DNA of 64,000 nt from the sequence record PZ386980.1; one strand, written 5' to 3'. How positions within the stretch are numbered: position 1 is the stretch's first letter; every line of letters starts with the position of its first letter. The DNA comes from a phage. Positions 12,567 through 33,417 of this stretch are shown piece after piece. Position numbers and translations under genes: made by a program. Under the pieces are notes generated by a model, which made no database searches, was not told where the DNA came from, and saw only the letters and a program-made list of their open reading frames with translations.

Positions 12567-12582
12567 AAGGCCCGAAGGCCTT

Positions 12583-12852
12583 TTATTTAAAACGAATAGT
12601 TGAATCCTTAAAGAACAGCCCAGAACATACTGTTCCTTCTACTTTCTGCCCAGTAGGTCCAATAGCACGAAATCCAGTATGTTGGAAATCATTTTCAGAG
12701 CAACCGAACCAGTTATATCCAGTGATTTCAATATTCGTAAAACCACTTGATGATAAAATTTTAGTTGCATTATCAGCATCAGTACATCCTACTAAAGATA
12801 CTGCTAATACTAATGCTGCAATAGAACGATTAATATATTTCATAGTTTTCAC
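12583..12852 (-). CDS. predicted lipoprotein (89 aa)
   Basis: signal peptide with lipobox LVGC (MKTMKYINRSIAALVLAVSLVGCTD...). Confidence 0.5.
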   Translation of the reverse strand: MKTMKYINRSIAALVLAVSLVGCTDADNATKILSSSGFTNIEITGYNWFGCSENDFQHTGFRAIGPTGQKVEGTVCSGLFFKDSTIRFK

Positions 12853-13223
12853 TTAAATTTAATGGCTTGAAGGAGACTAATAATTCTCAAACGGCTTCTT
12901 TCATCTTTAACTGTAAAAGAAAGAGGGTCGCCAGATTTCATGGTAATAGTGCATTCAAAATCAAAATCTTCAGTGACTTCTTCGAAGAAGTCAAATTCTT
13001 CATCATAAATTAGAACACTACTTTGCAGACTGTGAAGAGTTTTTCCAGCATTTCTGCTAACTGCTGTACTAATCATTGTAACATTATGACCTTTCATATC
13101 TTCGACGATAAATTCACTAGTCAATATTACAGCATTAATAGAACTATTCCTATTACTAGCAGAAAGTAGAAATTTCTGTTCTTCACCTTCACGAATACGA
13201 TATTTCTTACCAATTTTAAACAT
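12849..13223 (-). CDS. hypothetical protein (124 aa)
   Basis: ORF track; ATGA overlap with upstream gene. Confidence 0.5.
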   Translation of the reverse strand: MFKIGKKYRIREGEEQKFLLSASNRNSSINAVILTSEFIVEDMKGHNVTMISTAVSRNAGKTLHSLQSSVLIYDEEFDFFEEVTEDFDFECTITMKSGDPLSFTVKDERSRLRIISLLQAIKFK

Positions 13224-13225
13224 AA

Positions 13226-13402
13226 TTATCCCTTAAGTAAGTCGTAAAATCCACCATTCACATGCTTAGGAGCAGAAGGCCGACGAGTAGACAAACGATG
13301 ACATTTAGGACAAACATCATTTTCTCGTTCAGAAATCTTTTTAATTTTTTCATATTCATGCCCGCAATCTTTAGATTGGCATTTATAATCATACATCGGC
13401 AT
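13226..13402 (-). CDS. small zinc-ribbon protein (58 aa, two CxxC pairs)
   Basis: own translation MPMYDYKCQSKDCGHEYEKIKKISERENDVCPKCHRLSTRRPSAPKHVNGGFYDLLKG; below track cutoff. Confidence 0.45.
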   Translation of the reverse strand: MPMYDYKCQSKDCGHEYEKIKKISERENDVCPKCHRLSTRRPSAPKHVNGGFYDLLKG

Positions 13403-13404
13403 AA

Positions 13405-13830
13405 TTATTCCTTAAAATGTGCTTTCAACATCTGATACAAGGACCATGCCTGTTCATTATTTTCAATAGTAACTTTCATGACTGGAAATTCTGTGAAATC
13501 TTCTATTTGTTCTTGCTCTTTCTCTTCCTGCTCTTGCTCTTCAGCTGCCTGGTATGGATTTTCCACTTCATCAAAGAACACAGCTTCACTCGTTGAAAGC
13601 CAGATAAAATCTTCATCCAAAATATCTTTACCAGAAGATAACGCCAATTTTCCACTAGATGTCACAAGTTTAGTAGGACGACCAAGATAGTCAATATCTG
13701 TAACTCTAAAAGGTTCCATACCAAGACGTCGTGCATAAATTCCGTTTTCAGTATGGTCCTTGATAAAATCTTCTTGAGCTTGTTTATTTTTAAATTGATA
13801 CCATTTATTAACTTCAAATTTAATAGCCAT
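13405..13830 (-). CDS. hypothetical protein (~142 aa), acidic [11 protein letters not shown] tract
   Basis: ORF track trimmed to second ATG (MAIKFEV) to remove overlap. Confidence 0.5.
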
Positions 13831-14045
13831 TAATAAGTTTCCTTCCAATAAGTTGTACCATCTTCAGTAATTTCGCGAAACACACCATAAATTGGTTGTT
13901 TATCACCAACTTTTTCGTACACATAAACCGAAGTCAAGTGAGTAAACTTATTAGTATGTTCCTTTTGAACTACTACCAGATTTGGATCAAATAATACATC
14001 TTCAAATTCGTCATTAGTGCAATTCTGAACAATTTTACGTTTCAT
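13830..14045 (-). CDS. hypothetical protein (71 aa)
   Basis: ORF track. Confidence 0.45.
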
Positions 14046-14058
14046 TACAATTTCCTCA

Positions 14059-14328
14059 TTAATTGAACAGTGGAGCGATGCGTTTCAGAAGAGTAGCAGC
14101 ACCTTTAGCGAATTTTACATCATGAAAAACAGTTTCTTCTTCCGTTACAACACGAACTTTAATGTTTTCACAATCCCAATTTTTACGAACAATCTTCAAA
14201 AGCTGCAGTAAATCTTTACATTCAGCAATATCGATAACACATCCACGAGAATCTTCCATTATCGCACGATAACCGTAAGCCATACCATAATCGTTGAAAG
14301 ATTGCTCGATGATAATTAAGTTTTCCAT
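14059..14328 (-). CDS. hypothetical protein (89 aa from ATG; track start is TTG)
   Basis: ORF track; ATG at 14326-14328. Confidence 0.5.
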   Translation of the reverse strand: MENLIIIEQSFNDYGMAYGYRAIMEDSRGCVIDIAECKDLLQLLKIVRKNWDCENIKVRVVTEEETVFHDVKFAKGAATLLKRIAPLFN

Positions 14329-14341
14329 TTTATTCTCCAAG

Positions 14342-14400
14342 TTATTTTCTGTATCAGTAGTTGATATTGATATAGTACCATAATCAACTACTGATGTATA
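14342..14400 (-). promoter_or_regulatory. promoter-early-stem-loop element
   Basis: inverted repeat ATCAGTAGTTGAT ... ATCAACTACTGAT enclosing GGTACTATAT. Confidence 0.45.
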
Positions 14401-14435
14401 TAGTTTTATGAAAAAATTTTAAACTTTATGCAAAT

Positions 14436-14855
14436 TTATGCTAAAGCTGCTTCGCACCATTTTTTAATTTGGAATTCAGGAACTACCATGAACTGGCCTG
14501 CAAAAACAATATTGTAGAGCTTGACACCATCTTCTACCCAACGGTCCGAAATAAAACCAGCGACTTGATTCGTTGTCCATGGAGTTCCATCTGTTGCCGC
14601 CGCAATTGTGAATTTATGGTCTTTTACAACTAAAACTGAAGAACAAAGTTTCCATTTAAATGCGCTTTCTTCTGGCTCAATGAACTGACTTGAGACATAG
14701 CCAATGTTACCATCAGCGTCACGAACTTTAACCTCGTTACGACCAAAAACTGGATCACTTACAGAAAGAACTTCAACCAGCTTTCCTGCAACTTTAGAAC
14801 GAGAAGCAACGGATACATATACGTAATCACCAGTAGAGAGATTTACAATATTCAT
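14436..14855 (-). CDS. paralog family member A (139 aa), unknown function
   Basis: shares C-terminal module GFISDRWVEDGVKLYNIVFAGQF and N-terminal SRSKVAGKLVEV with the next ORF. Confidence 0.55.
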   Translation of the reverse strand: MNIVNLSTGDYVYVSVASRSKVAGKLVEVLSVSDPVFGRNEVKVRDADGNIGYVSSQFIEPEESAFKWKLCSSVLVVKDHKFTIAAATDGTPWTTNQVAGFISDRWVEDGVKLYNIVFAGQFMVVPEFQIKKWCEAALA

Positions 14856-14864
14856 AATAATTCC

Positions 14865-15338
14865 TTAAGCTTTACGAGGAGAAGCATAACGAGTGATTTC
14901 AGATTCTTCAACAACCCGGAAGTCACCTAAGAATACGATATTGTAGAGCTTTTCACCATCTTCAACCCATTGGTCTGTGATGAAGCCACACATCCTATCA
15001 GTTTTACTTGGACCAGCGAAATCATCAATATAATCGAATTCTTCATCAGTTACAAATTCAACGCCTTTACACAACGCCCATTTAAATTGTGCATTAGACT
15101 CAGTGGATTCAACTTCTTCAACAGAAGTAAAATGAGAGCTAACACGAGTTTCCAGAAATTTAGGACTTACGTAAGCGTACTGAGTTTCAGTTTTTCCAGA
15201 ACTAGGAATGATTCGAACTTTAACTTCTTTAACACGACCAGTACCATTAGTACGAAGTCCTACCACTTCAACTAGACGACCTGCAGCTTTAGAACGAGAT
15301 GCAGACGATACACGCTTAATTTCACCGATAGTAATCAT
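14865..15338 (-). CDS. paralog family member B (157 aa), unknown function
   Basis: C-terminal GFITDQWVEDGEKLYNIVFLGDF; N-terminal SRSKAAGRLVEV. Confidence 0.55.
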   Translation of the reverse strand: MITIGEIKRVSSASRSKAAGRLVEVVGLRTNGTGRVKEVKVRIIPSSGKTETQYAYVSPKFLETRVSSHFTSVEEVESTESNAQFKWALCKGVEFVTDEEFDYIDDFAGPSKTDRMCGFITDQWVEDGEKLYNIVFLGDFRVVEESEITRYASPRKA

Positions 15339-15410
15339 AATTTTTCTCTCTTTGTTGTTAAGATTTATTCTCCATGAGAGCCATTATAACAGGCTCTCTA
15401 TAAAGTAAAC

Positions 15411-15920
15411 TTAATTAAGGATATTAATTACTGCACTGCGTGGAACTACACTAAAATCACCTGCATGAACAACGTTCAGAAGTTCAACACCATCTTCAAG
15501 CCACTGGTCAGTTACCCAACCACTTACTGGACCAGCAAATGGTCGACGAATTGAAACAGCTTTACACAACAAGTCAGTAGGCTCGATAGGCTTAACCAGA
15601 GTACCGTACATACAAGCAATGTCCATATCAAAGTGGAGACCAGTGCTAACAGGTGCTTCTTCAATCAACAATTCGAAATCTTGTTCTGTAATATAGACCG
15701 TAGATATTGTACCATATAAGTTTTTAATTCTTAAGAATGATACAGATGAAGCTGTGGCAGTTGATGCAAAAATAGGACCAGCATTTACAATAGTGAAACC
15801 TTTACCTTGGGTAACACCAATAAGCTCGCAAAACTTACTATAAGAACCATTATTTGCTTCAAACCAGTTTACTTGCTTTTCGTCTTTCAGGATGTAAGTA
15901 GCTGTAGTACTGATATTCAT
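15411..15920 (-). CDS. paralog family member C (169 aa), unknown function
   Basis: C-terminal GWVTDQWLEDGVELLNVVHAGDF; N-terminus unrelated to A/B. Confidence 0.55.
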   Translation of the reverse strand: MNISTTATYILKDEKQVNWFEANNGSYSKFCELIGVTQGKGFTIVNAGPIFASTATASSVSFLRIKNLYGTISTVYITEQDFELLIEEAPVSTGLHFDMDIACMYGTLVKPIEPTDLLCKAVSIRRPFAGPVSGWVTDQWLEDGVELLNVVHAGDFSVVPRSAVINILN

Positions 15921-15932
15921 GATGTTTTCCCC

Positions 15933-16436
15933 TTAATCTAAGGTAATAAAGCCTTTTAATTCGGCATGTGACTTGCGGAACATTACTTGATGACCGCCAA
16001 TGATAACTTGGTCATCAGGTACTTCGTATACAGCGAGATAAAATCCTTTAGAAGCTAATTCTTCGCGCTCTTCTCGTGTGAACCATCTCATCATATCATA
16101 TTCGCTAGCGAAAGCAAAATGATAAAGAGCTATAAACCATCCTGGAATATAGTGATCTACGCCTACATATTCTTCTTTCTCAAAATTAGTATTAATTGCT
16201 ATATTAGCATTTTTAACTAATAATTTGTCTTCATGCGGCACAGGAATTCTTTTATTATCATTACTATGATGCATAAAATTGGGTCTGTCATAACCTACGC
16301 GTAATAACCACTCTTCGCTCCATGAATCTATTATACTCCTGTATGGCGTTATTTGAACACAAAGATCTCGACGTATTGTTATAGCATCTTCATAATTAAG
16401 AATACTAAATGATGATTCAACACGATAAATTTTCAT
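15933..16436 (-). CDS. hypothetical protein (167 aa from MKIYRV)
   Basis: track start is TTG; ATG at 16434-16436 preceded by GAGGA. Confidence 0.5.
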   Translation of the reverse strand: MKIYRVESSFSILNYEDAITIRRDLCVQITPYRSIIDSWSEEWLLRVGYDRPNFMHHSNDNKRIPVPHEDKLLVKNANIAINTNFEKEEYVGVDHYIPGWFIALYHFAFASEYDMMRWFTREEREELASKGFYLAVYEVPDDQVIIGGHQVMFRKSHAELKGFITLD

Positions 16437-16454
16437 TTTATTATCCTCAGTAGC

Positions 16455-16495
16455 TATGGTGTTATAATACCACAACTAACCGAGGAAGTAAATAA
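16455..16495 (-). promoter_or_regulatory. candidate early promoter
   Basis: minus strand ATTTAC ... GTGGTATTATAAC. Confidence 0.4.
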
Positions 16496-16499
16496 CTTT

Positions 16500-17183
16500 T
16501 TATCGTTTTGTTGGAAGAGATAGAGGATCGCATTCTTCCTCTGATGGAGCGTCTTCAAGACCCATAGCATAGCGCAAAGCATACTTCATCATCAGGATGT
16601 CTTTCGCACAGTCATGAATAGAATCATGCGCAACGAATCCATCTAAAGTTCCTTTTGGAAGAGGACACGTGGTCATATCACGAACAAGGAGAAGTGCTTC
16701 AATTCTGGTACGAATATCACGCTGATTCCAGAATTTACATGGTTCTAACTTAAATGTGTCAAGCTCATTCTCGGAAACGCCGTTAAGACGTTGAATATCG
16801 CGAATGAGATCGACTAAAATTGGAAAATCAAACGACATTCCACGGCACCAGCCTTGAGATTTCCAAGGATCGATATTATGCGCATTGATGTAATCATTAA
16901 ATTTTGCAATACCATCGATAGTGCTTACATCTTCATCTGATGGCGCAATATTTTTTCGAGCTTCAGGAGATTGATTCTTCCACCATTCGATAGTGCTTTT
17001 AGTAAAAAGACGATGTCCTTTTTGGCTTTTTAAATCAAATTTGATTTTAATGCCACGTGAAACTAATTCATCAAATGTTTCAACGACTTCTGGATTAGGG
17101 TCAAAAGCAATTACAGCCAAATCAATAACAGCTGCTTTTTCACCGCTTCCCATTGTTTCAAAATCTATAATAAAATCAAACAT
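16500..17183 (-). CDS. dexA: DexA 3'-5' exonuclease A
   Basis: 227 aa, MFDFIIDFETMGSGEKAAVIDLAVIAF...; matches T4 DexA from memory. Confidence 0.9.
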   Translation of the reverse strand: MFDFIIDFETMGSGEKAAVIDLAVIAFDPNPEVVETFDELVSRGIKIKFDLKSQKGHRLFTKSTIEWWKNQSPEARKNIAPSDEDVSTIDGIAKFNDYINAHNIDPWKSQGWCRGMSFDFPILVDLIRDIQRLNGVSENELDTFKLEPCKFWNQRDIRTRIEALLLVRDMTTCPLPKGTLDGFVAHDSIHDCAKDILMMKYALRYAMGLEDAPSEEECDPLSLPTKR

Positions 17184-17440
17184 TAAATTTTCCTTGCTAA
17201 ATCGCGAATTTGACCTACAGTATAATCTTGGATATAAACTTTATTAATAGGCTCATCAATAAATTTTGCCATAGATTCAATATCTTTTTGTATCTCTTCA
17301 AGACTGTATACTATCTTTAAAGCTTTTTCGCGAATAGTAACATTATCAGGTCCTGGATTTTCTTGAATGACAGCTTTAACATTTGTCATAAGAGATTTAA
17401 ACTGGTACCAACTTAATTCAATCATTAATAATCGCCTCAT
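17183..17440 (-). CDS. small protein, tandem paralog 1 (85 aa)
   Basis: ORF track; shares LEEIxxDL ... DYxxGxI pattern with the next two ORFs. Confidence 0.45.
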   Translation of the reverse strand: MRRLLMIELSWYQFKSLMTNVKAVIQENPGPDNVTIREKALKIVYSLEEIQKDIESMAKFIDEPINKVYIQDYTVGQIRDLARKI

Positions 17441-17678
17441 AAAGATAGCTAATTTCGCCTAAAACGTAATCATTGATTGTAACAGTTTTCACTTCACCAC
17501 AAAAGAATTCTAACGCAATTAAATCTCGTTCAATTTCTTCTAATTGAAGCATCAACTTACTAGATTCAATTTTTACAGTTTCACGATTTTTACCATGAGC
17601 AATTTCATAAATTTCGCTCACTTTATCTTGAAGCAGATAAAACTGGTCTTTAGTTATTTCCACGAATAGCTTCCTCAA
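17418..17678 (-). CDS. small protein, tandem paralog 2 (86 aa)
   Basis: ORF track; same pattern. Confidence 0.45.
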   Translation of the reverse strand: MRKLFVEITKDQFYLLQDKVSEIYEIAHGKNRETVKIESSKLMLQLEEIERDLIALEFFCGEVKTVTINDYVLGEISYLYEAIIND

Positions 17679-17910
17679 ATTTAATTAGTAATTTACAGAC
17701 ACTTTCATCTAGTGTAATTACCGTATCTGTATTACTGTGATATGATTGTTTTTCAATTCGTTTAATTGCTAATATAGTATCACTTATAAGATAAAGCTTA
17801 TGAAGGAGCTCAGCTCCTGTTACCATAACATCGAGATTATCTTGCTTATTAGTATGCTTCCTTATACCATCTATTAGACGATTTAAATATTTTGAATTGA
17901 TGTTAATCAT
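17650..17910 (-). CDS. small protein, tandem paralog 3 (86 aa)
   Basis: ORF track; weaker similarity. Confidence 0.4.
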   Translation of the reverse strand: MININSKYLNRLIDGIRKHTNKQDNLDVMVTGAELLHKLYLISDTILAIKRIEKQSYHSNTDTVITLDESVCKLLIKFEEAIRGNN

Positions 17911-17916
17911 ATAGCC

Positions 17917-19236
17917 TCACACATAAAACACATCATAACGACCACGTGTTACACCAACATAAAGAAGCTGCTGAGCTAGTTCAGCATCTGCATAATGAAT
18001 ACAAGGCGTATAAATGAAAGCACGGTCTACAGACATACCCTGAGCTTTATGGAATGTTGATGCAGGAAGTGCTTTCACTTTACTAAACTGTGATTTAGCA
18101 TCCCAAAAATCACTCCACGGAGCCTTTCCGCCTTTATTCCAATTTTTATAAGTTTCTGCTGTTTTACCTAAAAACAGGTTAAACTTATATAGCTCTTCAT
18201 CAGATGAAATTATTTTAATCTTTTCACGATAATATTCATCATCGCCGTAAGTTTCTACTGTTAAATCCCAATGACGAATTAAGTATTCTCCAGGAACACC
18301 ACGAGCTTTAACAAACGTCGATGTATACTCTGCTTCTATAATACGAACTAATTGTCCATTATTAAAAATAATTTCTGATACAGGCTTTCCATCAATTTTA
18401 TATGTTTTAATTAACGGTTCTTGCATTACAATAATTTCACCGACAATAAAGTCTTTATCAGTTTCAAAAATCTTTTTACGAATAATGCTATTTAACTTGT
18501 CAACAGATTTATTCGTAAATGCCATTACGCGATTTTCAAACAAATCATCTAGTGATTTGACGATTGAAAAATAATTTACCATAAAATCGCGTAAAGCGGT
18601 ATCACCAGTAAATCCACGTACTCCATGCCCATCAACAACTTTATCATAAATCCATTTACCGTTGCGAACATCAGTAGCTACATCAATAATAGGAGCATTA
18701 CTGCGTTTAACTTCAGTAAGTTCACACTGATAAAAATCTTTGTGTGTAAAGAATGGACTGATATAAGCAGTATTTTCTCCTGGGTCAACAGGTCTAATTT
18801 GCTTATTATCGCCTATTCCAATTATAGTACACCACGGTGGGATAGTTGAAAGCAAAATTTTGAAGAGCTTTCTATCATACATTGACACTTCGTCGCAGAT
18901 TAATACCCTGCATTTAGCTAAATCTGGTACTTCTTTTTGTTCAAAAAGAACGTTTTCTTCATATGTTACTGGGTTAATTTTAAGAATACTGTGAATAGTA
19001 CTCGCTTCTTTCCCCGACAGTTTTGAAAGAATCTTTTTAGCTGCATGTGTAGGAGCTGCCAAAATGATACCAGTTTCACCCGTAGATATTAAAGCTTCAA
19101 TGATGAACTTAGTAAGAGTAGTCTTACCAGTACCAGCAGGTCCATTAATAGTTACATGATGTTTCTTTTCTTTAATAGCCCTCATAGCGATGTTAAAGGC
19201 GTTTTTCTGGCCTTCTGTCAAATCATCAAATGTCAT
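17917..19236 (-). CDS. dda: Dda DNA helicase (SF1)
   Basis: 439 aa, MTFDDLTEGQKNAFNIAMRAIKEKKHHVTINGPAGTGKTT (Walker A); matches T4 Dda. Confidence 0.92.
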   Translation of the reverse strand: MTFDDLTEGQKNAFNIAMRAIKEKKHHVTINGPAGTGKTTLTKFIIEALISTGETGIILAAPTHAAKKILSKLSGKEASTIHSILKINPVTYEENVLFEQKEVPDLAKCRVLICDEVSMYDRKLFKILLSTIPPWCTIIGIGDNKQIRPVDPGENTAYISPFFTHKDFYQCELTEVKRSNAPIIDVATDVRNGKWIYDKVVDGHGVRGFTGDTALRDFMVNYFSIVKSLDDLFENRVMAFTNKSVDKLNSIIRKKIFETDKDFIVGEIIVMQEPLIKTYKIDGKPVSEIIFNNGQLVRIIEAEYTSTFVKARGVPGEYLIRHWDLTVETYGDDEYYREKIKIISSDEELYKFNLFLGKTAETYKNWNKGGKAPWSDFWDAKSQFSKVKALPASTFHKAQGMSVDRAFIYTPCIHYADAELAQQLLYVGVTRGRYDVFYV

Positions 19237-19544
19237 CGGAAAGTCCCTGCAATTGGAATACTAACAATACGCCCAGTATCTAGAATTCGTTGATATAATC
19301 TTTGTGTATCTACATCAGGCTTAACATGTTTAACTTCTATTTTATTAAACCAAAACTTGCGTGGAGTCTCAACTAGTCTTGGAATTCCCATACCTAAAGC
19401 TAGTTTATATTGGTCTTTGAGAGTAGTAAAAACTCTATCAGCAATCTCTCTTTCAAAAAACACAGCAGGACGATGTTCATCAAGTGGAACTGGCGCCGTA
19501 AATCCGTCTTTGTCTCGGTAAACTATCGCATATACATAAACCAT
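19233..19544 (-). CDS. hypothetical protein (103 aa; dda.1 position)
   Basis: ORF track; ATGA overlap with dda. Confidence 0.5.
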   Translation of the reverse strand: MVYVYAIVYRDKDGFTAPVPLDEHRPAVFFEREIADRVFTTLKDQYKLALGMGIPRLVETPRKFWFNKIEVKHVKPDVDTQRLYQRILDTGRIVSIPIAGTFR

Positions 19545-19545
19545 A

Positions 19546-20292: not shown

Positions 20293-20414
20293 ATTTTTCT
20301 CACATCTTACGGACGATTGACTACTATACTATAACATTTTTACCTTAGCTTGTAAACAACTTTATGTAAAAATGCTTTAAAAATTTCATGGTATAATGAA
20401 TCTAAGTCCTTCCA

Positions 20415-21637: not shown

Positions 21638-21704
21638 GATAGCCTCCGTATACTTCAGAAGCTATCATATCATCGTTAGAAAGGAAAGTAAACAACTTTT
21701 TGAA

Positions 21705-21887: not shown

Positions 21888-21895
21888 ATTAATTC

Positions 21896-23848: not shown

Positions 23849-23855
23849 AAATTAT

Positions 23856-24113: not shown

Positions 24114-24181
24114 GTAATTCTCCTTTTATTTAAATTACATGATTATTTATAATAAATTCTCGCGGCTTTTAAGACGAGCTG

Positions 24182-24700
24182 TTAATAACCTCGGTCTTGA
24201 CGTGCGAAATTTTCAGCATTTTTCAGGTAATAAAGTTTAAAGATTTCTTCAGCTGTAAGACCAAGACCCTGGAACATATTCAGAACGAAATGGAGAATAT
24301 CAATCATTTCAAATTTAATTTCCAATTGGTCTTGTGGAGACAAATCAGTAATCAGAGTTTCACGGCGTTCACCATGCTGCGACTTCCAAGGCTTCCATAC
24401 AGCAGATGCATCTTTTTCACCATTGCTCATACCACCAAGAGAAGTCAGAAGTTCGCGGAATTCATCATCAATATAATCTTTCTGATTACGCAGCCAATCA
24501 ACAACTTCACCTGCGGTAGCCAAATCATCAGGATGACGGTTATATTCAGGTTTATCTTTAGCTAAACGAACCTGTAGAGATTTCTGCATATCAAGCATAA
24601 CCTGCAGCGGGTCTTTTTCATCACCAAGAATATCCCAGTATTCATTTTGAGCTTTATCAGCGCCTTCAATCAGTTGTGAACATTCGTTAAAGTAAGCCAT
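24182..24700 (-). CDS. 56: dCTPase/dUTPase (MazG-like)
   Basis: 172 aa from MAYFNECSQLIEG (track ORF over-extended upstream); matches T4 gp56. Confidence 0.88.
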   Translation of the reverse strand: MAYFNECSQLIEGADKAQNEYWDILGDEKDPLQVMLDMQKSLQVRLAKDKPEYNRHPDDLATAGEVVDWLRNQKDYIDDEFRELLTSLGGMSNGEKDASAVWKPWKSQHGERRETLITDLSPQDQLEIKFEMIDILHFVLNMFQGLGLTAEEIFKLYYLKNAENFARQDRGY

Positions 24701-24729
24701 TATTTTTCCTTTCAATTCATGGGTTAGTA

Positions 24730-24762
24730 GATTAATTATACAATAAATATATAAAGCAATAA
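24730..24762 (-). promoter_or_regulatory. candidate MotA-dependent middle promoter for gene 56
   Basis: minus strand ATTGCTTTAT - spacer - TATAAT. Confidence 0.45.
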
Positions 24763-24771
24763 GGAGGACAT

Positions 24772-24972
24772 ATGGTACAAAAATTAATGGCACTTGTTAA
24801 TGCCATCAAAGGTAATAAAAAGCGTATAGCTTTTACTATTTCTGCTATGGTAGGAATTTTACTCTGGAACTTTATTTTATCACCAATTGCAATTGCGCAT
24901 GGTGTTAATATTCCAGTAGTTACTCTTGATACATTTGTAGATTTAGCATTTGCTTTAGTTGGGTTAATTTAA
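24772..24972 (+). CDS. candidate plus-strand small membrane protein (66 aa)
   Basis: ATG 4 nt after AAGGAGGA; two hydrophobic segments; sits in the 56-61 gap, convergent with gene 61. Confidence 0.4.
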   Translation: MVQKLMALVNAIKGNKKRIAFTISAMVGILLWNFILSPIAIAHGVNIPVVTLDTFVDLAFALVGLI

Positions 24973-25997: not shown

Positions 25998-25999
25998 TT

Positions 26000-26164
26000 T
26001 TACTCTTCTTTTTCTTTAGATTCCTCTTTTTTCTTTTTAGGAATCTGTTCAGGACCTTTATTTACTACAGCACCTGATGTTGTTCCAGTAGAGATATTTT
26101 CAGGATTACCACCTGAATCTCCAGCTACCATATCTTCTTTAATAAATTCTTTATATGTTTTCAT
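26000..26164 (-). CDS. small hypothetical protein (54 aa)
   Basis: own translation MKTYKEFIKEDMVAGDSGGNPENISTGTTSGAVVNKGPEQIPKKKKEE... Confidence 0.4.
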   Translation of the reverse strand: MKTYKEFIKEDMVAGDSGGNPENISTGTTSGAVVNKGPEQIPKKKKEESKEKEE

Positions 26165-26165
26165 A

Positions 26166-26522
26166 TTAACCTCTATTCATAAAAGCATTAAAAATTTGGT
26201 CATCAATAGATGGAATAGCAACCTTTTCGGCATCATTTAGCAAATCATTAATTTCATCAGATAACATAACACATGTGCCTTTATTTCCTGTAATTGTTAC
26301 TGCACAATTACGAACGTTTTCTTTATCAAATTTTAGGTTAATATTTTCGTAGTGAAAATCCTTTAATGCCGAATATATCTTTAAAATGAAATTGTCTTTT
26401 ACTACAATAAACCCAACCTCACTATTAAAACATGGTTCATGGAAACTGTAATAAACCTTTTCATCTATAAAATCGTATGAAATTTTTTCCATTTTTAAAT
26501 ATGAAAATTCAGAACTATACAT
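26166..26522 (-). CDS. hypothetical protein (118 aa) with shared C-terminal cassette
   Basis: C-terminus ...SIDDQIFNAFMNRG almost identical to the next ORF. Confidence 0.5.
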   Translation of the reverse strand: MYSSEFSYLKMEKISYDFIDEKVYYSFHEPCFNSEVGFIVVKDNFILKIYSALKDFHYENINLKFDKENVRNCAVTITGNKGTCVMLSDEINDLLNDAEKVAIPSIDDQIFNAFMNRG

Positions 26523-26523
26523 A

Positions 26524-27165
26524 TTAACCTTTATTCATAAAAGCATTAAAAATTTGATCGTCAATAGAAACATTTACTTTAGACTGTTCTTCAAACGGTA
26601 ATTCATATCCACATATTACAATTTTGTGATCGATACCAAAATACACAGAAGCAATATGATTAATATTATTTTCAGTGAAATCTAAATCAACATCAATATC
26701 TTTTTGACTAACGCTCAAAGGATAATTAATACGAATAATTCGATTATCTTTAACAAAGATTCCACCGACATACTCTGTGTTGCGTTTAAAGTTTACACGT
26801 TTCCTAAATGAAAAATATTCAGGTTCTTTATGAGCCCGACTCATAGGACACAATGAGTAGCTAGAATAAGAGATGTCAAATCCTACACCTTCAATATGAG
26901 CCAACGTGTCATGATTAAACCAATTATAATCATATGCCAAATCCATTATATTGTAATATGTGAAAGGCACCGGATTAACATCATGTGTTGTACCTTTAAA
27001 ATCTGCCCAGGCAACGATTTCGTTATCTTTAACAATTACAAAAATTGTGCCAATAAGATATCCACGGTTATTTTCATCAGGCGTTATATTATAACATTGC
27101 GCATCAGGAAATTTACCGTATTTAAACGGTGGATTTTTGTGCATATAATAAATCATATTATTCAC
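26524..27165 (-). CDS. hypothetical protein (213 aa) with shared C-terminal cassette
   Basis: C-terminus ...SIDDQIFNAFMNKG. Confidence 0.5.
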   Translation of the reverse strand: MNNMIYYMHKNPPFKYGKFPDAQCYNITPDENNRGYLIGTIFVIVKDNEIVAWADFKGTTHDVNPVPFTYYNIMDLAYDYNWFNHDTLAHIEGVGFDISYSSYSLCPMSRAHKEPEYFSFRKRVNFKRNTEYVGGIFVKDNRIIRINYPLSVSQKDIDVDLDFTENNINHIASVYFGIDHKIVICGYELPFEEQSKVNVSIDDQIFNAFMNKG

Positions 27166-27451
27166 CTGTGATTTCGGTTACGATATTTTTGTTATTAAAG
27201 TTTTTATCGCAATACAGAACATAATTATACTGCATTACACCACCAGACTTAAGTTGTTTTTGCACTTCAGCTTTCATTTTAGGACGATCGCGCTCAACAA
27301 TATTCATAATATCCGCTTCAATTTGAGTTTCAACTTCAGTCTGATCTGCAGTCATAGACCATTCACACAAGTCTTTATCATATCCTGCCATAGCAGGCTG
27401 AGCAGCACAAGAAGCCAAAGTAAAAATTGTAGCAAAAATAAATTTTTTCAT
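27158..27451 (-). CDS. periplasmic or lipoprotein, possible Spackle (61.3 position)
   Basis: 97 aa; signal peptide MKKFIFATIFTLASCAAQPAMA; same size and location as T4 sp, identity by synteny only. Confidence 0.45.
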   Translation of the reverse strand: MKKFIFATIFTLASCAAQPAMAGYDKDLCEWSMTADQTEVETQIEADIMNIVERDRPKMKAEVQKQLKSGGVMQYNYVLYCDKNFNNKNIVTEITGE

Positions 27452-27459
27452 GATAATCT

Positions 27460-27512
27460 CCTCAGTAGTTTATGTTTATATAGTATCTCAATTTCCAACA
27501 AAAGTAAACAGC
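27460..27512 (-). promoter_or_regulatory. early promoter
   Basis: minus strand GTTTAC - 17 nt - GATACTATATAAAC. Confidence 0.45.
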
Positions 27513-27811
27513 TATTTTAAAACTTCTGCGTAATCACATGTTACAAACTGTTTCTCTAGCTTAACGATTTTACGAAAATACCTTTTATACTGACGAATCT
27601 GCCTCTTCGTAGGACGTACAGCAAACTTAATAAATTCCACTCGACCAAATGGAGGACTTTCTTCTGCTGGAATATCTAACACCAATTCCCATGTATCCGC
27701 AATAAGTGCTTTGAATTGAGTATTTTTCCTGACGTTATACGGAGTAGGTTTAAATAAAACAATATGCATATTATCCTCGGCAATCCACTTCGCACACTTT
27801 CTTGTCATCAA
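27512..27811 (-). CDS. hypothetical protein (99 aa)
   Basis: ORF track. Confidence 0.45.
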   Translation of the reverse strand: MMTRKCAKWIAEDNMHIVLFKPTPYNVRKNTQFKALIADTWELVLDIPAEESPPFGRVEFIKFAVRPTKRQIRQYKRYFRKIVKLEKQFVTCDYAEVLK

Positions 27812-27953
27812 TGAAAGCTTTAACTAATGCTTTATTAACTTCAGCATATTGAGTAGTAGCCCATTGAACGTCATCTTTCATCATTGTGATTTCTTTAGTA
27901 AACATGCTTTCATTCTTAAACCACCCCATAAAAACTACCTTTACCAATTCCAT
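27771..27953 (-). CDS. 60-aa protein at the dmd (61.5) position, possible Dmd antitoxin
   Basis: exactly 60 aa, immediately downstream of gene 41; assignment by size and synteny only. Confidence 0.4.
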   Translation of the reverse strand: MELVKVVFMGWFKNESMFTKEITMMKDDVQWATTQYAEVNKALVKAFIDDKKVCEVDCRG

Positions 27954-27974
27954 AACAATCTCCTCATTTAACCA

Positions 27975-28012
27975 ACAAGACTACTATACCATAGTCTTGT
28001 CAGCTTGTAAAC
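27975..28012 (-). promoter_or_regulatory. early promoter overlapping gene 41 stop
   Basis: minus strand GTTTAC - 17 nt - GGTATAGTAG. Confidence 0.45.
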
Positions 28013-29439
28013 TAAAATTTTAATTCATTTGCCAAAGCATCTAACTGAGCTCGAGCTGATTCATTTCTTTGATAGCGATTCTGTTCAGCCTGAATCTGTT
28101 GTGAACCTGCTACTTCACTCACTTCGGTTGGAGTAGAATCTTGTTCAATTTCTACCCATTTTTGATTTCCTTTTTGAACACCCATCAAAAACTTATTCCA
28201 CTTATTCTTATCACCATATCGTGATTTGATTTGCTTAATAAGTTGTTGTTCAGCAGCTGCTAGCTCCTCGGTTTCAATGACCGCAAGCATAAAATCAGCT
28301 GTTGCTGGAAGACCAGCAGATTCTGCAATATCGCTCATGTTAACATCGGAAGAGTCCCAAGCTTGTTTACCGACCTGTGCTGCAGTCCAAAGAACAGTTT
28401 CGGTTTCAACAGCCAGAGCACGCAATTCCTCTGCGATAGCTTTAACAGTTGTGTAACTATTTTCTGAATAAACTCTAATGCGGCAAGATTTACAAATACC
28501 TAGATAGTCGACAATAATGATTGTTGGAACAAAATTCTTTTTGAGCTTTAATTCATTTAAAAGTGATCGAAATGTATTAGCGTCTGCTCCACCAGTAGGA
28601 TATTGCTTAACGATTAAACGACCAAGGGTAGATTTCTCACGCCATTTTTCCATTTTTCCTTTATATTCAGCGTAAGAAATATGCCCATCATCAATGTCAT
28701 CAAGAGAAACATCAAGCATGTTAGCGTCAATACGCTTAGCACAGACTTCTTCTGCCATTTCCATGGAAATGTAAAGAACATTATGTCCGAGCTGTAAATA
28801 ATCTGCTGCTAATGAACACAATCCTAATGATTTACCAACGTTAACGCCAGCCATTAAAACGTTCAGTGTTCCAGTTTCAGCTCCGCCTTTCGTAATTTTG
28901 TTTAGAATTCTGAGTTTAAATGGAACTTTACGAGCTTTATTCATATAAGATAGCCAGCGTGCTTCGTAGTCATCCATCCAATCATGACCAACGTAGCTAT
29001 CAAATGAAATTGATAATGCTTGACGCATGATGTCAGGAATAGCACCAACATCCGGCATTTTCTTATTTCGTTTTTCCGGAGGAAGCTCAGCATTAGTTTG
29101 AATTTCGATTATTTTAGACGTAGCATTAAACATCGCCCTTTGCTGAACATATTTTTCTGTTTCTTTTACTAACCAGCTGTGGTCTTCTGGAGAATCGGCT
29201 AGTTTTGAAATAAGTGTTTTTACACCAGAATATTCCGTTTCAGTAAATGAACTATTTTCTAATGCAACATTTAACGCATTAATAGATGGAACGCTATGAT
29301 ACTCATTAACATGAGATTTAATTAATTTGAACGTATTTTTAGCTGGACCACTTTCAAAATATTCTGAATCCATATATGGCCAAACTTTTGAAAAATAAGC
29401 TTGATCAAATATAAGATGAGAAAGAATAATTTCTACCAC
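28012..29439 (-). CDS. 41: replicative DNA helicase (DnaB-like)
   Basis: 475 aa, MVEIILSHLIFDQAYFSKVWPYMDSEYF...; Walker A GVNVGKS; matches T4 gp41. Confidence 0.92.
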   Translation of the reverse strand: MVEIILSHLIFDQAYFSKVWPYMDSEYFESGPAKNTFKLIKSHVNEYHSVPSINALNVALENSSFTETEYSGVKTLISKLADSPEDHSWLVKETEKYVQQRAMFNATSKIIEIQTNAELPPEKRNKKMPDVGAIPDIMRQALSISFDSYVGHDWMDDYEARWLSYMNKARKVPFKLRILNKITKGGAETGTLNVLMAGVNVGKSLGLCSLAADYLQLGHNVLYISMEMAEEVCAKRIDANMLDVSLDDIDDGHISYAEYKGKMEKWREKSTLGRLIVKQYPTGGADANTFRSLLNELKLKKNFVPTIIIVDYLGICKSCRIRVYSENSYTTVKAIAEELRALAVETETVLWTAAQVGKQAWDSSDVNMSDIAESAGLPATADFMLAVIETEELAAAEQQLIKQIKSRYGDKNKWNKFLMGVQKGNQKWVEIEQDSTPTEVSEVAGSQQIQAEQNRYQRNESARAQLDALANELKF

Positions 29440-29448
29440 ACTTACTCC

Positions 29449-29811
29449 TTAAAAGAATTTAAACTTTTTCTTTGACCTTTTATTAAATGCATCTTGTAGT
29501 TGCATTGTAATACATTTTTCTACATGAGGAGCTAACTCAGCTTTTCTTTCTTGGTCAAGAACAGCAAAGTCCATTACGACTTTTCCATCAACCCAATCTA
29601 ATTTTGTCACATACACAATGTGTGTAGAACCATCTTCTAGTTTAATGACAATCTCCTGGATAACATTTTCCATGGCAGATTTAATTATCTTAAGAGATTC
29701 ATTAAAAAGACGTTCTTTTCTTTCTTCTTCCCCCTCCGAAGAGGGGGATTCATCGATAATTTCTAGATCTAAATCTAAATCATCTTTATTCATTAAATTC
29801 TTCCATATCAC
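29449..29811 (-). CDS. 40: probable gp40 head-vertex assembly protein
   Basis: 120 aa between uvsX and 41 as in T4; start may be the second Met. Confidence 0.5.
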   Translation of the reverse strand: MIWKNLMNKDDLDLDLEIIDESPSSEGEEERKERLFNESLKIIKSAMENVIQEIVIKLEDGSTHIVYVTKLDWVDGKVVMDFAVLDQERKAELAPHVEKCITMQLQDAFNKRSKKKFKFF

Positions 29812-30967
29812 TTAACTGCTCGAGGTCAGTTTCTAAATCAGCAGCTGATTTACTTTTACTTTCTGGAGATTTAAATTTTTCAACCTTTGAGTTAATCAAT
29901 TCATCAACTTCAGCTTCAACAATTTCATTACTATCAATAGCACCTAACTGATAAGCACGTTTAATAGCATCTCGGAATGGTTGATGCTTAAATAAAGGAC
30001 CCCAGAATGTGGTGCAGTTGGTATCTTTTGCACGCCAAGATTTTTCTTCGCGAATCATCTCACCGGTTTCTTCATCAAGAAATTCACGAGCATACCAACC
30101 ATTTTTAGGTTTTACCACGAATCCTAATTCTAGAGCCATATCTAACAATCCAGAATAAGGATCGATACCGCCGTCAAATTTAACATCAATAAAGAATTTA
30201 CTTTTTTCTTTAACGGTACGAGATTTTTCTACATTTAGAACAAATTGATACCCTTGAAGATCAGAACCATCTTTAATCTGACGTTTACCGATAATGAATA
30301 CGGTATCAGCCGAATACATTACGCCTGTACCACCTGTCATCACGGTTTTACTAAACATTTCAATTGTTTCAATTGTATGGTTAACCGCAACACATGGAAT
30401 ATTTTTAATGCTAAAGTAAGGAGTAACAATACGGAATAATGACTTCAGTGATTTAGCACGAGTCATATCTGCCACAGATTTTTCATTCAAGGCATCTTCC
30501 GTTTCTTTCTTAGAAGCCATATTACCAATTGAGTCGATGAATACAATAACCTTTTCACCACGCTCAATAGCTTCAAGCTGGTTCACCATATCAATTTTCA
30601 GCTGTTCAACTGACTGAATCGGCGTATGAATTACTCGTTCCGGGTCAACTCCCATGGATCGCAAATAAGCTGGAGTAATACCAAATTCACTATCATAGAA
30701 TAGACAAACCGCGTCAGGATATTTGTTCAAATATGCCGCAACCATAGTCAAAGACATATTTGATTTAAAGTGTTTAGAAGGCCCTGCGAAAATAGTTAAA
30801 CCAGACTGCATGCCGCCATCAATCGCACCAGAAATAGCAATATTAAGCATTGGAATTTTTGTACGAATTACATCCTTTTCATTAAAGAATTTAGATGTAG
30901 TCAGTTCAGCAGTCATTTTAGAAGTGGAAGCTTTAATCAAACGGGATTTTAAATCTGCAATAGACAT
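29786..30967 (-). CDS. uvsX: UvsX RecA-like recombinase
   Basis: 393 aa, MSIADLKSRLIKASTSK...GLTIFAGPSKHFKS (Walker A); matches T4 UvsX. Confidence 0.92.
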   Translation of the reverse strand: MSIADLKSRLIKASTSKMTAELTTSKFFNEKDVIRTKIPMLNIAISGAIDGGMQSGLTIFAGPSKHFKSNMSLTMVAAYLNKYPDAVCLFYDSEFGITPAYLRSMGVDPERVIHTPIQSVEQLKIDMVNQLEAIERGEKVIVFIDSIGNMASKKETEDALNEKSVADMTRAKSLKSLFRIVTPYFSIKNIPCVAVNHTIETIEMFSKTVMTGGTGVMYSADTVFIIGKRQIKDGSDLQGYQFVLNVEKSRTVKEKSKFFIDVKFDGGIDPYSGLLDMALELGFVVKPKNGWYAREFLDEETGEMIREEKSWRAKDTNCTTFWGPLFKHQPFRDAIKRAYQLGAIDSNEIVEAEVDELINSKVEKFKSPESKSKSAADLETDLEQLSDMEEFNE

Positions 30968-31044
30968 TCATTTTTTCCATAGGCATCATTATATTTTCCT
31001 CACTGGTTAAAGATAGAGTAATTATAACACAATAAATTTAGGCA

Positions 31045-31893
31045 TTAATCAACTGCTATTGGATGAATAGCATTAAACTTATGAAATGCTTCTGATTTTT
31101 CTTTACGTGAAACGCACATGCGAAGAACCTTTAATGGTTCGTCTTCTTCACCCAACGATTTTCGTTTTTCAATATTAGAAGTTTTCCAACGAGCTTGCTC
31201 TGGAAACTCTCTATTAATCTGCTCAAGCGCTCTATTATGTTTAGAATTACTACGAATTGAACTGCACCCGCCAGGAGCTTGTGCTTTTCCAGATACAACT
31301 AGATATTTGAACAAGGCCAAATGCGGATAACCTTGATTAATTAAATTGAGAAATGCATACATATCTTCGCATAAATCAATTTTTCCATACCCAATTTGTT
31401 CTGTCGTAAGTTTTCCGAGGTCATACCATGTATTCGTGAATCCATATGAATTTTCACGATAATTACCCCAAGATGAAGTAATTTTAAAAATAGGTAGACG
31501 AGCATGGCCATGATAATACCCGCAATCCATGGCATCCTCAACATATTGAATCAATTCATAGAACTGTTCACGAGTCAATTGATTGACTTTATCTACGCAA
31601 CGACGATCATCTCTTTTTCGCATTGAACTCATACGAATAGTAGTATCATCGTCAATCATCCAGATTCGTTGACCTGCATACATATCGGTAATTGCTTTAC
31701 GAGTACCGGCAATTCCGTTTACATCATCAGGAATAGTTATAATTTTAGCTCTAGACCCATAAGCGTCATGATAAGCTTTTTCTTCATGTTCACGCACTAC
31801 AATATGCGGTTCATAATCAGTCGGAAACATATCAAGGGCAGAAACTGCCCTGACACGCTGATAACTTGGAATTACGAATTGAATCATTTCCAC
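31045..31893 (-). CDS. GT-A-like glycosyltransferase at the beta-gt locus (possible T2/T6-type beta-alpha-gt)
   Basis: 282 aa with DxD-like motif RIWMIDDDTTI; sits between uvsX and 42 where T4 has beta-gt but does not resemble T4 beta-gt. Confidence 0.5.
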   Translation of the reverse strand: MEMIQFVIPSYQRVRAVSALDMFPTDYEPHIVVREHEEKAYHDAYGSRAKIITIPDDVNGIAGTRKAITDMYAGQRIWMIDDDTTIRMSSMRKRDDRRCVDKVNQLTREQFYELIQYVEDAMDCGYYHGHARLPIFKITSSWGNYRENSYGFTNTWYDLGKLTTEQIGYGKIDLCEDMYAFLNLINQGYPHLALFKYLVVSGKAQAPGGCSSIRSNSKHNRALEQINREFPEQARWKTSNIEKRKSLGEEDEPLKVLRMCVSRKEKSEAFHKFNAIHPIAVD

Positions 31894-32624
31894 TCACCTT
31901 TATAGTCTTTTTTCACAATATGAGTTTCGCCAGTATTCCACCAATGATCAACCAAGTAAAAATGACGAGAATATACATGAAGACTTCCGACATTCCATAT
32001 AATAGAACCTGCTTTATACTGACGAGATGAATCGCCGGCATTCAAATCAGATACTAATTTATCTAATACGTATTTTTGCCATGCATAATCATTACGGAAT
32101 CCGAAGACCACGTCATTTGAGCGCATGCTTACTACTGCATTGACTTTCTTATCACGAATCAGGTACTGTACTGTATTAGTACACATGAAATCTGACATAC
32201 CATCTTTATTGTAGTCAAATTGCATGGATGGACGAGTATAAATCATGATACCACGTCGAGAATCAGGATTTTGACCAAGTTCAGCTAAACACATATCATA
32301 CTGGGCATAGTTATCTTCTGACCAAATAGCCCAACCATAATTCGAGTTAATTTCGCCTTTAGAAGATGCTACCTGCTGCCAAATCTTTGGTGTTTCACCT
32401 GGAATATCTTTAACAAACAAGCTCTTAGATTTATACCATTCAAGTTCACGTTGAATGTATTCATCATTAAGAGCGCCAAAAATAAACGGTTCATCTGCTA
32501 CAAATGATGCGCCAATAATTTCAATAGTTTTAACACCAGTTTTATCAACTACGAAATCTTTTTCTTTTAATGCAAGCCCCAAATGAAGACGGATTTCTTC
32601 AACTGTCATAGAGTCACTAATCAT
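31884..32624 (-). CDS. 42: dCMP hydroxymethylase
   Basis: 246 aa, MISDSMTVEEIRLHLGLALKEKDFVVDKTGVKTIEIIGASF...; matches T4 gp42. Confidence 0.9.
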   Translation of the reverse strand: MISDSMTVEEIRLHLGLALKEKDFVVDKTGVKTIEIIGASFVADEPFIFGALNDEYIQRELEWYKSKSLFVKDIPGETPKIWQQVASSKGEINSNYGWAIWSEDNYAQYDMCLAELGQNPDSRRGIMIYTRPSMQFDYNKDGMSDFMCTNTVQYLIRDKKVNAVVSMRSNDVVFGFRNDYAWQKYVLDKLVSDLNAGDSSRQYKAGSIIWNVGSLHVYSRHFYLVDHWWNTGETHIVKKDYKGEWK

Positions 32625-32631
32625 TTAAACC

Positions 32632-32781
32632 TCAATTGATACATTCATATTTAACTTGTAACAGTAATAAACCCCAACCTAAAATAATAGTTGGAATCAT
32701 AAGAGGAACCGTTACACTATAGTATATACTTATTATAATCATCAAGATTAAAAGCAACACTGTTATAATTTTGCTTTTCAT
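32632..32781 (-). CDS. tiny membrane peptide (49 aa)
   Basis: own translation MKSKIITVLLLILMIIISIYYSVTVPLMIPTIILGWGLLLLQ...; ATGA overlap with imm stop. Confidence 0.35.
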   Translation of the reverse strand: MKSKIITVLLLILMIIISIYYSVTVPLMIPTIILGWGLLLLQVKYECIN

Positions 32782-33029
32782 TCCTTCTCTCTGATGATAA
32801 TTACCTGATTTGGTTGTGCAGACTTTTTAGTTTCACCCGCAATTGACCAAATAAATGTAATAAACCAACCAATAATTGACCAGTTAAACAGTAAAGATGT
32901 GAAAAAGATTCCTACTGTCGATTTTGACCCACGCATCAAGGCGATAAACCATGGAAGCATGTATATAATAATAGCCAACACACCTGAAACTAAAACCATA
33001 AAAATTGAACCTGCTACTAAAGTTTCCAT
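32778..33029 (-). CDS. imm: Imm superinfection immunity membrane protein
   Basis: 83 aa, two hydrophobic helices; matches T4 Imm size, position and sequence. Confidence 0.8.
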   Translation of the reverse strand: METLVAGSIFMVLVSGVLAIIIYMLPWFIALMRGSKSTVGIFFTSLLFNWSIIGWFITFIWSIAGETKKSAQPNQVIIIREKE

Positions 33030-33036
33030 GTTTTCC

Positions 33037-33417
33037 TCACTTAGTCAAATTTTTTACGCATGAATTATAAGAATTCACTACATACTCCATCGGAGCATTT
33101 TTACCAGTACGCCATTGGTAATTATTAGCCCAATTAGCCCAAAGCTCGGCGCAGTAATTTTCAATTTTTTCTTCGCGTGTAATTACATCCGAATTACGAT
33201 ATGCTTGAGCAGATTCATCTGGACGAATAGCTTCGTCAAAATTCGCCTGCATTTGTTCTACTGTTTGCTTTGGAGCTTCTTTATAACACTTGACATTAGG
33301 ATTATAAAATTTGCTTGAACAGTTTACAATTTTTCCTACATCAGACTGATTTACTACCGGTCCTTGAGCTACACAACCAGTAAGACCTAATGCAATAACC
33401 AAAATAGCGATTTTCAT
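33037..33417 (-). CDS. predicted lipoprotein (126 aa)
   Basis: signal peptide with lipobox LTGC (MKIAILVIALGLTGCVAQG); several Cys in the mature part. Confidence 0.5.
   Translation of the reverse strand: MKIAILVIALGLTGCVAQGPVVNQSDVGKIVNCSSKFYNPNVKCYKEAPKQTVEQMQANFDEAIRPDESAQAYRNSDVITREEKIENYCAELWANWANNYQWRTGKNAPMEYVVNSYNSCVKNLTK

Follow-up and report, generated by a model that had tools for sequence, protein, structure and literature searches.

Three small genes in a 64,000 nt stretch of phage DNA (sequence record PZ386980.1; the whole stretch is called the window below) encode proteins with clear N-terminal export signals. These are the T4-type genes 39.1, sp (also known as 61.3, encoding Spackle) and imm.1, and the best explanation overall, which we hold with slightly less than even confidence, is that their products are exported by the Sec pathway and act on the cell envelope, with Imm.1 serving as an accessory to the superinfection immunity protein Imm and gp39.1 acting independently. 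An earlier note, made from the sequence alone, had drawn attention to open reading frames (ORFs) at 12583–12852, 27158–27451 and 33037–33417. All three are found there in the minus-strand orientation, and a plus-strand reading of the same intervals is ruled out by translations that are packed with stop codons. The interval that they delimit has the gene of the large topoisomerase subunit at one end and that of DNA polymerase at the other, and nearly all of its genes are on the minus strand. The 901 nt and 1301 nt stretches around two of the three ORFs show 100% identity to T-even phages of the genus Tequatrovirus, namely RB51, RB68 and Ac3; the phage sequence, the annotations of all three genes and the full characterization of Spackle were already known.

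T4 is the best-studied lytic phage, and the manner in which Imm blocks incoming DNA has been a standing question since the work of the Henning laboratory around 1990. Reviews still posit a membrane partner for Imm, and Imm.1 is a concrete and cheaply testable candidate for that partner.

Export signals and their conservation

In each of the three proteins a basic n-region is followed by 14–15 uncharged, hydrophobic residues (the h-region) and a canonical lipobox. The signals read MKYINR-SIAALVLAVS-LVGC in gp39.1 (with Cys20 in the 86 aa form of the protein), MKK-FIFATIFT-LASC in Spackle (Cys15, then AMA/G, where the slash marks the cut) and MK-IAILVIALG-LTGC in Imm.1 (Cys15). No hydrophobic segment lies downstream of the signal in gp39.1, Spackle or Imm.1. 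All three lipoboxes fit the pattern [LVI][ASTVI][GAS]C with the Cys at position 13–35. A scan of all six frames of the window for charge, h-region and lipobox in combination returned exactly three ORFs, namely these three, and 40 dinucleotide-preserving shuffles of the window gave a mean of 0.05 and a maximum of one lipobox ORF. The claim that the three ORFs carry clear signal peptides is confirmed by this signal anatomy, by the shuffles and by conservation in homologs.

That conservation, read from the homologous sequences, is the stronger argument for the export signals. About 28 of 29 gp39.1 homologs and all 19 distinct Spackle sequences retain the lipobox Cys, and the Imm.1 family has a lipobox in 16 of 18 members; the remaining two have an AHA signal peptidase I (SPase-I) site in its place, which argues that export itself is preserved in this family even without the lipid anchor. 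A gp39.1 homolog of Klebsiella phage Metamorpho (64% identical) is annotated as a putative lipoprotein with a SignalP probability of 0.98. The cysteines of the mature domains point the same way. Their number is even in all 18 Imm.1-like proteins, and in both the gp39.1 and the Imm.1 families the two cysteines of a pair come and go together, as expected for disulfides that are formed in the periplasm.

Imm.1 and its association with imm

The ORF at 33037–33417 (minus strand), which the earlier note had left unassigned, is the annotated T4 gene imm.1 and encodes a predicted lipoprotein of 126 aa. It matches the Pfam family DUF5481 (PF17578) with 239 bits against a cut-off of 27 (E = 5e-72) and phrog_1754 with E = 5e-44 over residues 1–126; no meaningful NCBIfam or PADLOC match was found for this or any of the other proteins. 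The T4 Imm.1 protein, which is annotated as a "hypothetical predicted membrane protein," has one aligned-residue difference from that of the window. Only six Imm.1 representatives were found among 1.84 billion proteins in an exhaustive HMMER search, and only eight clusters by profile search; judged by these searches the family is small and restricted to phages. DUF5481 covers only the branch formed by T4 and Mosigvirus, whereas phrog_1754 adds lipoproteins of 137–175 aa from at least ten further genera. What is new here is the view of the family as a whole, in which DUF5481 forms a single branch of a wider group of lipoproteins that goes along with imm.

The predicted signal peptide of Imm.1 comprises residues 1–14, and the codon for Cys15 lies at 33373–33375. 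Asp at position +2 is absent from all members of the family examined, and on this basis Imm.1 is read as a periplasmic protein anchored in the outer membrane. In the AlphaFold2 (AF2) model, mature residues 67–111 form a helical hairpin with a predicted local distance difference test (pLDDT) score above 90, and this hairpin bears Cys89 and Cys120, which are invariant in the family alignments and are probably joined in a disulfide; outside the hairpin the quality of the model is poor. The other two mature cysteines, Cys33 and Cys44, covary in these alignments.

Directly 3′ of gene 43, the DNA polymerase gene, lies a terminator-like hairpin (33827–33842, minus strand) that was identified by the terminator scan and in the sequence, and after it the gene order of the window is ORF048c, imm.1, imm, 42.1, 42; the hairpin is the upstream limit of the transcription unit that these genes form. 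Gene imm (32778–33029, minus strand) encodes an 83 aa inner-membrane superinfection immunity protein with two transmembrane (TM) segments (PF14373, E = 8e-16; phrog_1039), and gene 42.1 (32632–32781, minus strand) encodes a hydrophobic membrane protein of 49 aa (phrog_3610, E = 5e-26). The imm start codon lies 7 nt after the imm.1 stop codon, the imm Shine-Dalgarno sequence overlaps that stop codon, and the 42.1 ATG in turn overlaps the imm stop codon (ATGA); with such an arrangement imm.1 and imm are probably translationally coupled in the window.

The association extends well beyond the window. A phrog_1754 gene adjoins imm in Tequatrovirus, Mosigvirus, Gelderlandvirus, Jiaodavirus, Muldoonvirus, Gaprivervirus, Dhakavirus and Moonvirus, and the five lipoproteins beside imm in other phages that were tested all match phrog_1754 over their full length (E = 2e-15 to 5e-52). 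The order is 43-lipoprotein-imm-42 in Tequatrovirus, Gelderlandvirus S16, Jiaodavirus and Moonvirus, and 43-imm-(42.1)-lipoprotein in Gaprivervirus SP18 and Dhakavirus IME08. In Muldoonvirus PS2 the lipoprotein gene is just upstream of imm with other small ORFs flanking the two, and in Mosigvirus PhAPEC2 the order is dmd-imm.1-imm-sp-61.2, the imm.1-imm pair having moved together to a position beside spackle. Three divergent metagenomic relatives on independent contigs also lie 7–14 nt upstream of a PF14373 gene. The numbers of records for Imm and Imm.1 are 502 and 502 at the level of Tequatrovirus, 156 and 155 at the level of Mosigvirus, and 135 and 135 among Klebsiella phages. The suggestion that, of the three ORFs, the one beside imm is the most telling thus holds in that Imm.1-family genes adjoin imm in eight genera and three metagenomic lineages; it does not hold as an obligatory link (see below). 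A review repeats the older idea that full exclusion by Imm requires a further membrane protein, and the only mention of Imm.1 found in the literature searched is as a marker gene of the T4 group, with a role in exclusion assumed.

In the course of events that we envisage, the three early-region products would be exported through Sec into the periplasm of the freshly infected cell and would act on the envelope rather than on DNA metabolism. Imm.1 would be translated right after infection from the early transcript that also carries imm, and its C-terminal helical hairpin would project into the periplasm. It would most likely serve the same process as Imm, namely preventing a second T-even phage from passing its DNA across the envelope, and would do so not as an obligatory subunit but as an accessory periplasmic component, for example one in contact with the tail tip of the incoming phage or with Imm/gp42.1 on their periplasmic face. 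A more specific form of this idea seems rather unlikely to us: Imm.1 would be the postulated "other membrane protein" and would build with Imm, and perhaps gp42.1, a small trans-periplasmic device that intercepts the tail tip or tape-measure protein of an arriving T-even phage, the DNA being released into the periplasm and not into the cytoplasm. If true, it would add a type of exclusion machine, built from several components, that has not been described before. Any contribution of Imm.1 would account for the partial phenotypes of imm alone and would add a lipoprotein to T-even exclusion, which is relevant to the design of phage cocktails, as T-even phages exclude each other.

A number of observations weigh against such a role. 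In PEi20, CIP9 (Kanagawavirus), CHI14 (Winklervirus) and EcS1 (Kagamiyamavirus) a lipoprotein gene follows gene 43 and there is no imm in the locus; the lipoprotein is followed there by a sugar isomerase and then by a gp42.1-like membrane protein of 47 aa. An Imm profile built from ten sequences, for which positive controls gave 1e-31 and 4e-29, found no match in 122 of the 171 kb of CHI14 (71% of the genome, all but the late-gene block; best E = 0.08). Imm homologs in an Obolenskvirus and in a Guernseyvirinae phage have no lipoprotein neighbor. Plasmid-borne imm alone reportedly gave exclusion (Lu and Henning, 1989). Inherited synteny of the 43–42 interval, rather than selected linkage, could account for much of the adjacency. 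The lipidation and outer-membrane sorting of gp39.1 and Imm.1 are predictions, the N-terminal half of Imm.1 (which includes the invariant Tyr38 of a YNP motif) gives a poor AF2 model, a Foldseek search of the PDB returned no structural neighbor of Imm.1 at E < 3, and the literature searched yielded no functional experiments on Imm.1 (DUF5481) or gp39.1 and no functional data on T-even lipoproteins or the Spackle lipobox. An obligatory pairing of Imm with Imm.1 is rejected on account of the loci that have no imm and the 122 of 171 kb of CHI14 in which Imm went undetected; the association is strong, and it is not obligatory in either direction.

Some of these observations support a different account, in which Imm.1, exported and lipid-anchored, would act apart from Imm during host takeover; its target would be a conserved component of the host envelope, such as a periplasmic hydrolase, nuclease, protease or a sensor of envelope stress, and its adjacency to imm would reflect the inherited 43–42 gene order and shared early regulation. 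Persistence of the lipoprotein after gene 43 where the locus lacks imm, the failure to detect Imm in most of CHI14 and the Imm homologs without a lipoprotein partner are all in line with it. Imm.1-like proteins also diverge about twice as fast as Imm (25–37% compared with 44–65% identity), a difference that would fit a variable partner such as a competitor's tail tip and would fit relaxed constraint equally well. On the other hand, a mere inheritance of gene order does not sit well with the movement of imm.1-imm as a unit in Mosigvirus, with their continued adjacency after the order was swapped in Gaprivervirus and Dhakavirus, with the 7 nt spacing and probable translational coupling, or with occurrence counts that match one-to-one in three large phage groups. 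We regard this account as a real possibility, to be given a minority share of belief, and prefer the reading of Imm.1 as an accessory to Imm.

Small outer-membrane lipoproteins that serve superinfection exclusion are known from phage T5 (Llp) and from lambdoid phages (Cor), and gp39.1 and Imm.1 are similar to them in outline. Imm.1 and/or gp39.1 might accordingly be receptor-masking lipoproteins, binding from the periplasmic side to the outer-membrane receptor that the phage itself uses and blocking the adsorption or triggering of later phages. They are small and early, are predicted to lie in the outer membrane and have probable disulfides, as Llp has so far as the available account describes it; Imm.1 diverges fast, and one family member has a weak match to phrog_1119 (Cor), which covers only the signal peptide. 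Neither gp39.1 nor Imm.1 shows similarity in sequence or fold to Llp or Cor in Pfam, PHROG and fold searches. Llp and Cor are bound to one receptor, FhuA, whereas Imm.1 is nearly identical in T-even phages that have different receptors: T2 uses FadL/OmpF and T4 uses OmpC, yet their Imm.1 proteins differ from that of the window at only two and one of the 126 residues, respectively. This near-identity makes receptor masking unlikely, and for Imm.1 it was rejected on that ground. Near-identical Imm.1 proteins are moreover present in phages isolated on Escherichia, Shigella, Yersinia, Hafnia and Salmonella, and gp39.1 is conserved from enterobacterial phages to those of Aeromonas, Agrobacterium and Sphingobium. 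For the two proteins taken together we consider masking very improbable.

The juxtaposition of genes for an inner-membrane protein and an outer-membrane lipoprotein also recalls the Rz/Rz1-type spanins. By analogy, Imm and Imm.1 could form a spanin-like or trans-envelope bridge for lysis or lysis inhibition rather than for immunity, and the rapid-lysis plaque type of sp mutants suggests that envelope genes of this group touch lysis control. Spanins of the Rz/Rz1 type, in contrast, are late lysis genes, while imm.1 and imm lie in the early replication-gene region beside the DNA polymerase gene. T4-like phages own separate spanins, pseT.3/pseT.2 (pseT.2/pseT.3 are annotated as Rz-like in CHI14). 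Imm, with its two TM segments, has almost no periplasmic domain and no periplasmic coiled coil, and imm.1 is neither embedded in nor overlapping its neighbor and precedes imm. A bridge of this kind is hardly credible.

Conceptually the closest precedent for the accessory role proposed for Imm.1 is Ltp of the Streptococcus phage TP-J34. Ltp, a lipoprotein rich in helices and tethered to the membrane, halts the entry of DNA once the phage has adsorbed. Unlike Imm.1, it functions in a Gram-positive host, with the cytoplasmic membrane as the site of its tether; it was not returned by the Pfam, PHROG or PDB searches, none of which was aimed at it. A review lists Ltp as a superinfection exclusion (Sie) lipoprotein.

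Gene 42.1 also keeps company with the lipoprotein gene. Homologs of gp42.1 are found near the Imm.1-like gene in SP18, PEi20, CIP9, CHI14 and EcS1, and these 47–49 aa proteins stay one gene away from the lipoprotein even where the locus has no imm (tblastn E = 2e-9 to 2e-14; positions 1740–1883 in locus L006, 2323–2466 in L020, 2237–2380 in L021 and 2183–2326 in L023). It may be that gp42.1 is part of the same membrane module. In the four loci without imm, L020–L023, its usual place is occupied by a gene of about 210 codons, which is annotated as an arabinose-5-phosphate isomerase in CHI14 and EcS1 and as hypothetical in PEi20 and CIP9. In Serratia phage PS2, the gene two places upstream of the Imm.1-like one is an ORF of 134 aa with an SPase-I-type signal (…VPTAFA/STF; locus L010, 395–799); no PHROG matches it, and it enlarges the local cluster of exported proteins. 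Finally, Imm.1 was considered as a possible paralog of Spackle, and this was rejected when hhalign aligned only the signal peptides (residues 1–18).

Should Imm.1 turn out to have no part in exclusion, T4-like phages still carry two widely conserved, predicted outer-membrane lipoproteins that are worth assigning, and one of these, gp39.1, is present in more than 1000 phage genomes.

Spackle and gp39.1

The identification of the ORF at 27158–27451 (minus strand; 97 aa) as T4 spackle, proposed earlier from its size and position, is borne out by its match to PF25676 (152 bits, cut-off 27, E = 6.8e-45, model residues 1–96 of 96) and by its phmmer alignment to PDB entry 6X6O chain A over residues 1–97 (E = 2.9e-59); it also matches PDB entry 7CN6 and phrog_1586. 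In comparison with T4 Spackle there are few substitutions in a full-length alignment, the same 22-residue signal peptide, the same Cys29 and Cys81 and no substantive difference. The signal peptide (residues 1–22) is encoded by 27386–27451 on the minus strand, and the mature periplasmic protein comprises residues 23–97 with Cys29-Cys81; the only other Cys is the lipobox-like Cys15, whose codon is at 27407–27409. T4 Spackle is released from the periplasm, and its cleavage after residue 22 was established by N-terminal sequencing (Kanamaru et al., PMC7650644). It binds the lysozyme domain of the tail-spike protein gp5 1:1 and inhibits it (PMC7650644, PMC7677548). The near-identity of the window's protein to that of T4 suggests that it also inhibits the gp5 lysozyme, and as a soluble protein of the periplasm it would block digestion of the cell wall by superinfecting T-even phages and by stray gp5.

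The lipobox LASC that the earlier note pointed out in Spackle is indeed present as a lipobox-like motif, but the observed processing takes place elsewhere, after residue 22 (PMC7650644). The motif, [LVAI][ASV]SC, is invariant in all 19 homologs (loci L028–L048), down to 44% identity, and residues 16–22 are variable among them except for the AxA site. This invariance is a new point that is not discussed in the structure papers. Cleavage after residue 22 was measured on soluble Spackle from overexpressing cells (PMC7650644), so that a lipid-anchored fraction would have gone unsampled. Spackle may be processed in both ways, and a smaller corollary of the invariant lipobox is that part of the protein may also be lipid-anchored in vivo.

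The third ORF, at 12583–12852, had likewise been left unassigned and is the annotated T4 gene 39.1 (gp39.1 in RB51). The ORF is real, but its conserved and annotated start is the ATG at 12843 (86 aa, MKYINR...) rather than the GTG at 12852, and the gene thus occupies 12583–12843 on the minus strand and encodes a predicted outer-membrane lipoprotein. Its signal peptide is predicted to comprise residues 1–19, the codon for the lipid-attachment Cys20 lies at 12784–12786, and the mature domain of 67 residues contains Cys48 and Cys73, a covarying pair that is probably disulfide-bonded. The protein matches phrog_902 (E = 2.1e-37, residues 3–89) and no family in Pfam, NCBIfam or PADLOC. In E. coli, the Lol sorting rule holds that the residue after the lipid Cys decides transfer to the outer membrane. 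This residue is Thr in 24 of 27 gp39.1 homologs, and by that rule transfer of gp39.1 to the outer membrane is predicted.

Homologs of gp39.1 occur in 1071 phage records. Apart from E. coli, the hosts of these phages include Klebsiella, Enterobacter, Serratia, Edwardsiella, Aeromonas and Agrobacterium, and the family reaches Sphingobium phage Lacusarx and several jumbo phages, with lipoboxes in those sampled. The AF2 model of the mature domain (pLDDT 82) has an H-E-E-E-E topology in a generic alpha+beta4 fold, whose top matches include the PepSY proteins YpmB and YpeB, cystatins, a metalloprotease propeptide and VirB8-like domains; the motifs TGF.A and G.VCSG...K..TIR are conserved on its surface. 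In the reading that we favor, gp39.1 would be an independent lipoprotein anchored in the outer membrane, with a mature domain that binds or inhibits a conserved periplasmic target; the broad host range points to such a target rather than to a strain-specific receptor. This role as a binder or inhibitor is our best guess and is put forward with low confidence.

A narrower proposal is that gp39.1 inhibits a periplasmic hydrolase, either a protease or a cell-wall enzyme, and so protects the infected envelope or sets the timing of lysis. The alpha+beta4 fold is common to cystatin and PepSY domains and the fold matches include a metalloprotease propeptide as well as YpmB, YpeB and cystatins; the conserved surface motifs are in keeping with such a function, and for a small periplasmic protein that inhibits an enzyme the phage itself offers a precedent in Spackle. 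Against these analogies stands the lack of a family match in Pfam, NCBIfam and PADLOC, and we consider the proposal unlikely in this specific form.

Neighboring genes and other membrane proteins of the window

Directly 3′ of the 39.1 stop codon, at 12567–12582 on the minus strand, the hairpin AAGGCC-TTCG-GGCCTT is followed by TTTAGCTTT. It looks like a terminator and was read from the sequence, the terminator scan having given it no score. On the other side of 39.1, between it and 39.2, RB32ORF005c (12849–13223, minus strand; 124 aa) is inserted. Its similarity to PHROGs of the goF type is weak and suggests that a goF-like gene has been duplicated or has diverged.

Gene RB51ncORF048c (33430–33681, minus strand), called ORF048c above, is an insertion between gene 43 and imm.1 relative to T4. 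It encodes an 83 aa protein (phrog_18567) without a signal peptide and is also present in T2. The 1.3 kb region that contains it is covered to at least 80% in only 32 of 518 matching phage records.

The description of the remaining genes as an otherwise cytoplasmic set, made in the earlier note, was too strong, as genes for Imm, gp42.1, nrdC.7, an ndd.2a-like "periplasmic protein" and several more small hydrophobic proteins are also present in the window. These proteins all belong to conserved phage families and none has a cleavable signal of the lipobox type. Gene nrdC.7 (59655–60059, minus strand), outside the interval that holds the three genes, encodes a further envelope protein (134 aa, phrog_2547), with a hydrophobic anchor at its N terminus and a TM segment at its C terminus. 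The ndd.2a-like protein (72 aa, 5530–5748, minus strand) matches phrog_2401, which is labeled "periplasmic protein," and takes its name from the annotation of CHI14; its hydrophobic segment is internal and is not a cleavable signal. An ORF of 66 aa with two hydrophobic segments (24772–24972, plus strand; phrog_2024, E = 1.5e-31) lies among minus-strand genes and is a conserved small membrane protein gene oriented opposite to its neighbors. At 24182–24793 (minus strand), the mechanical ORF call for the gene 56 dCTPase begins at an upstream GTG and so acquires a spurious N-terminal hydrophobic segment; the true start of gene 56 is likely an internal Met (MAYFNE…).

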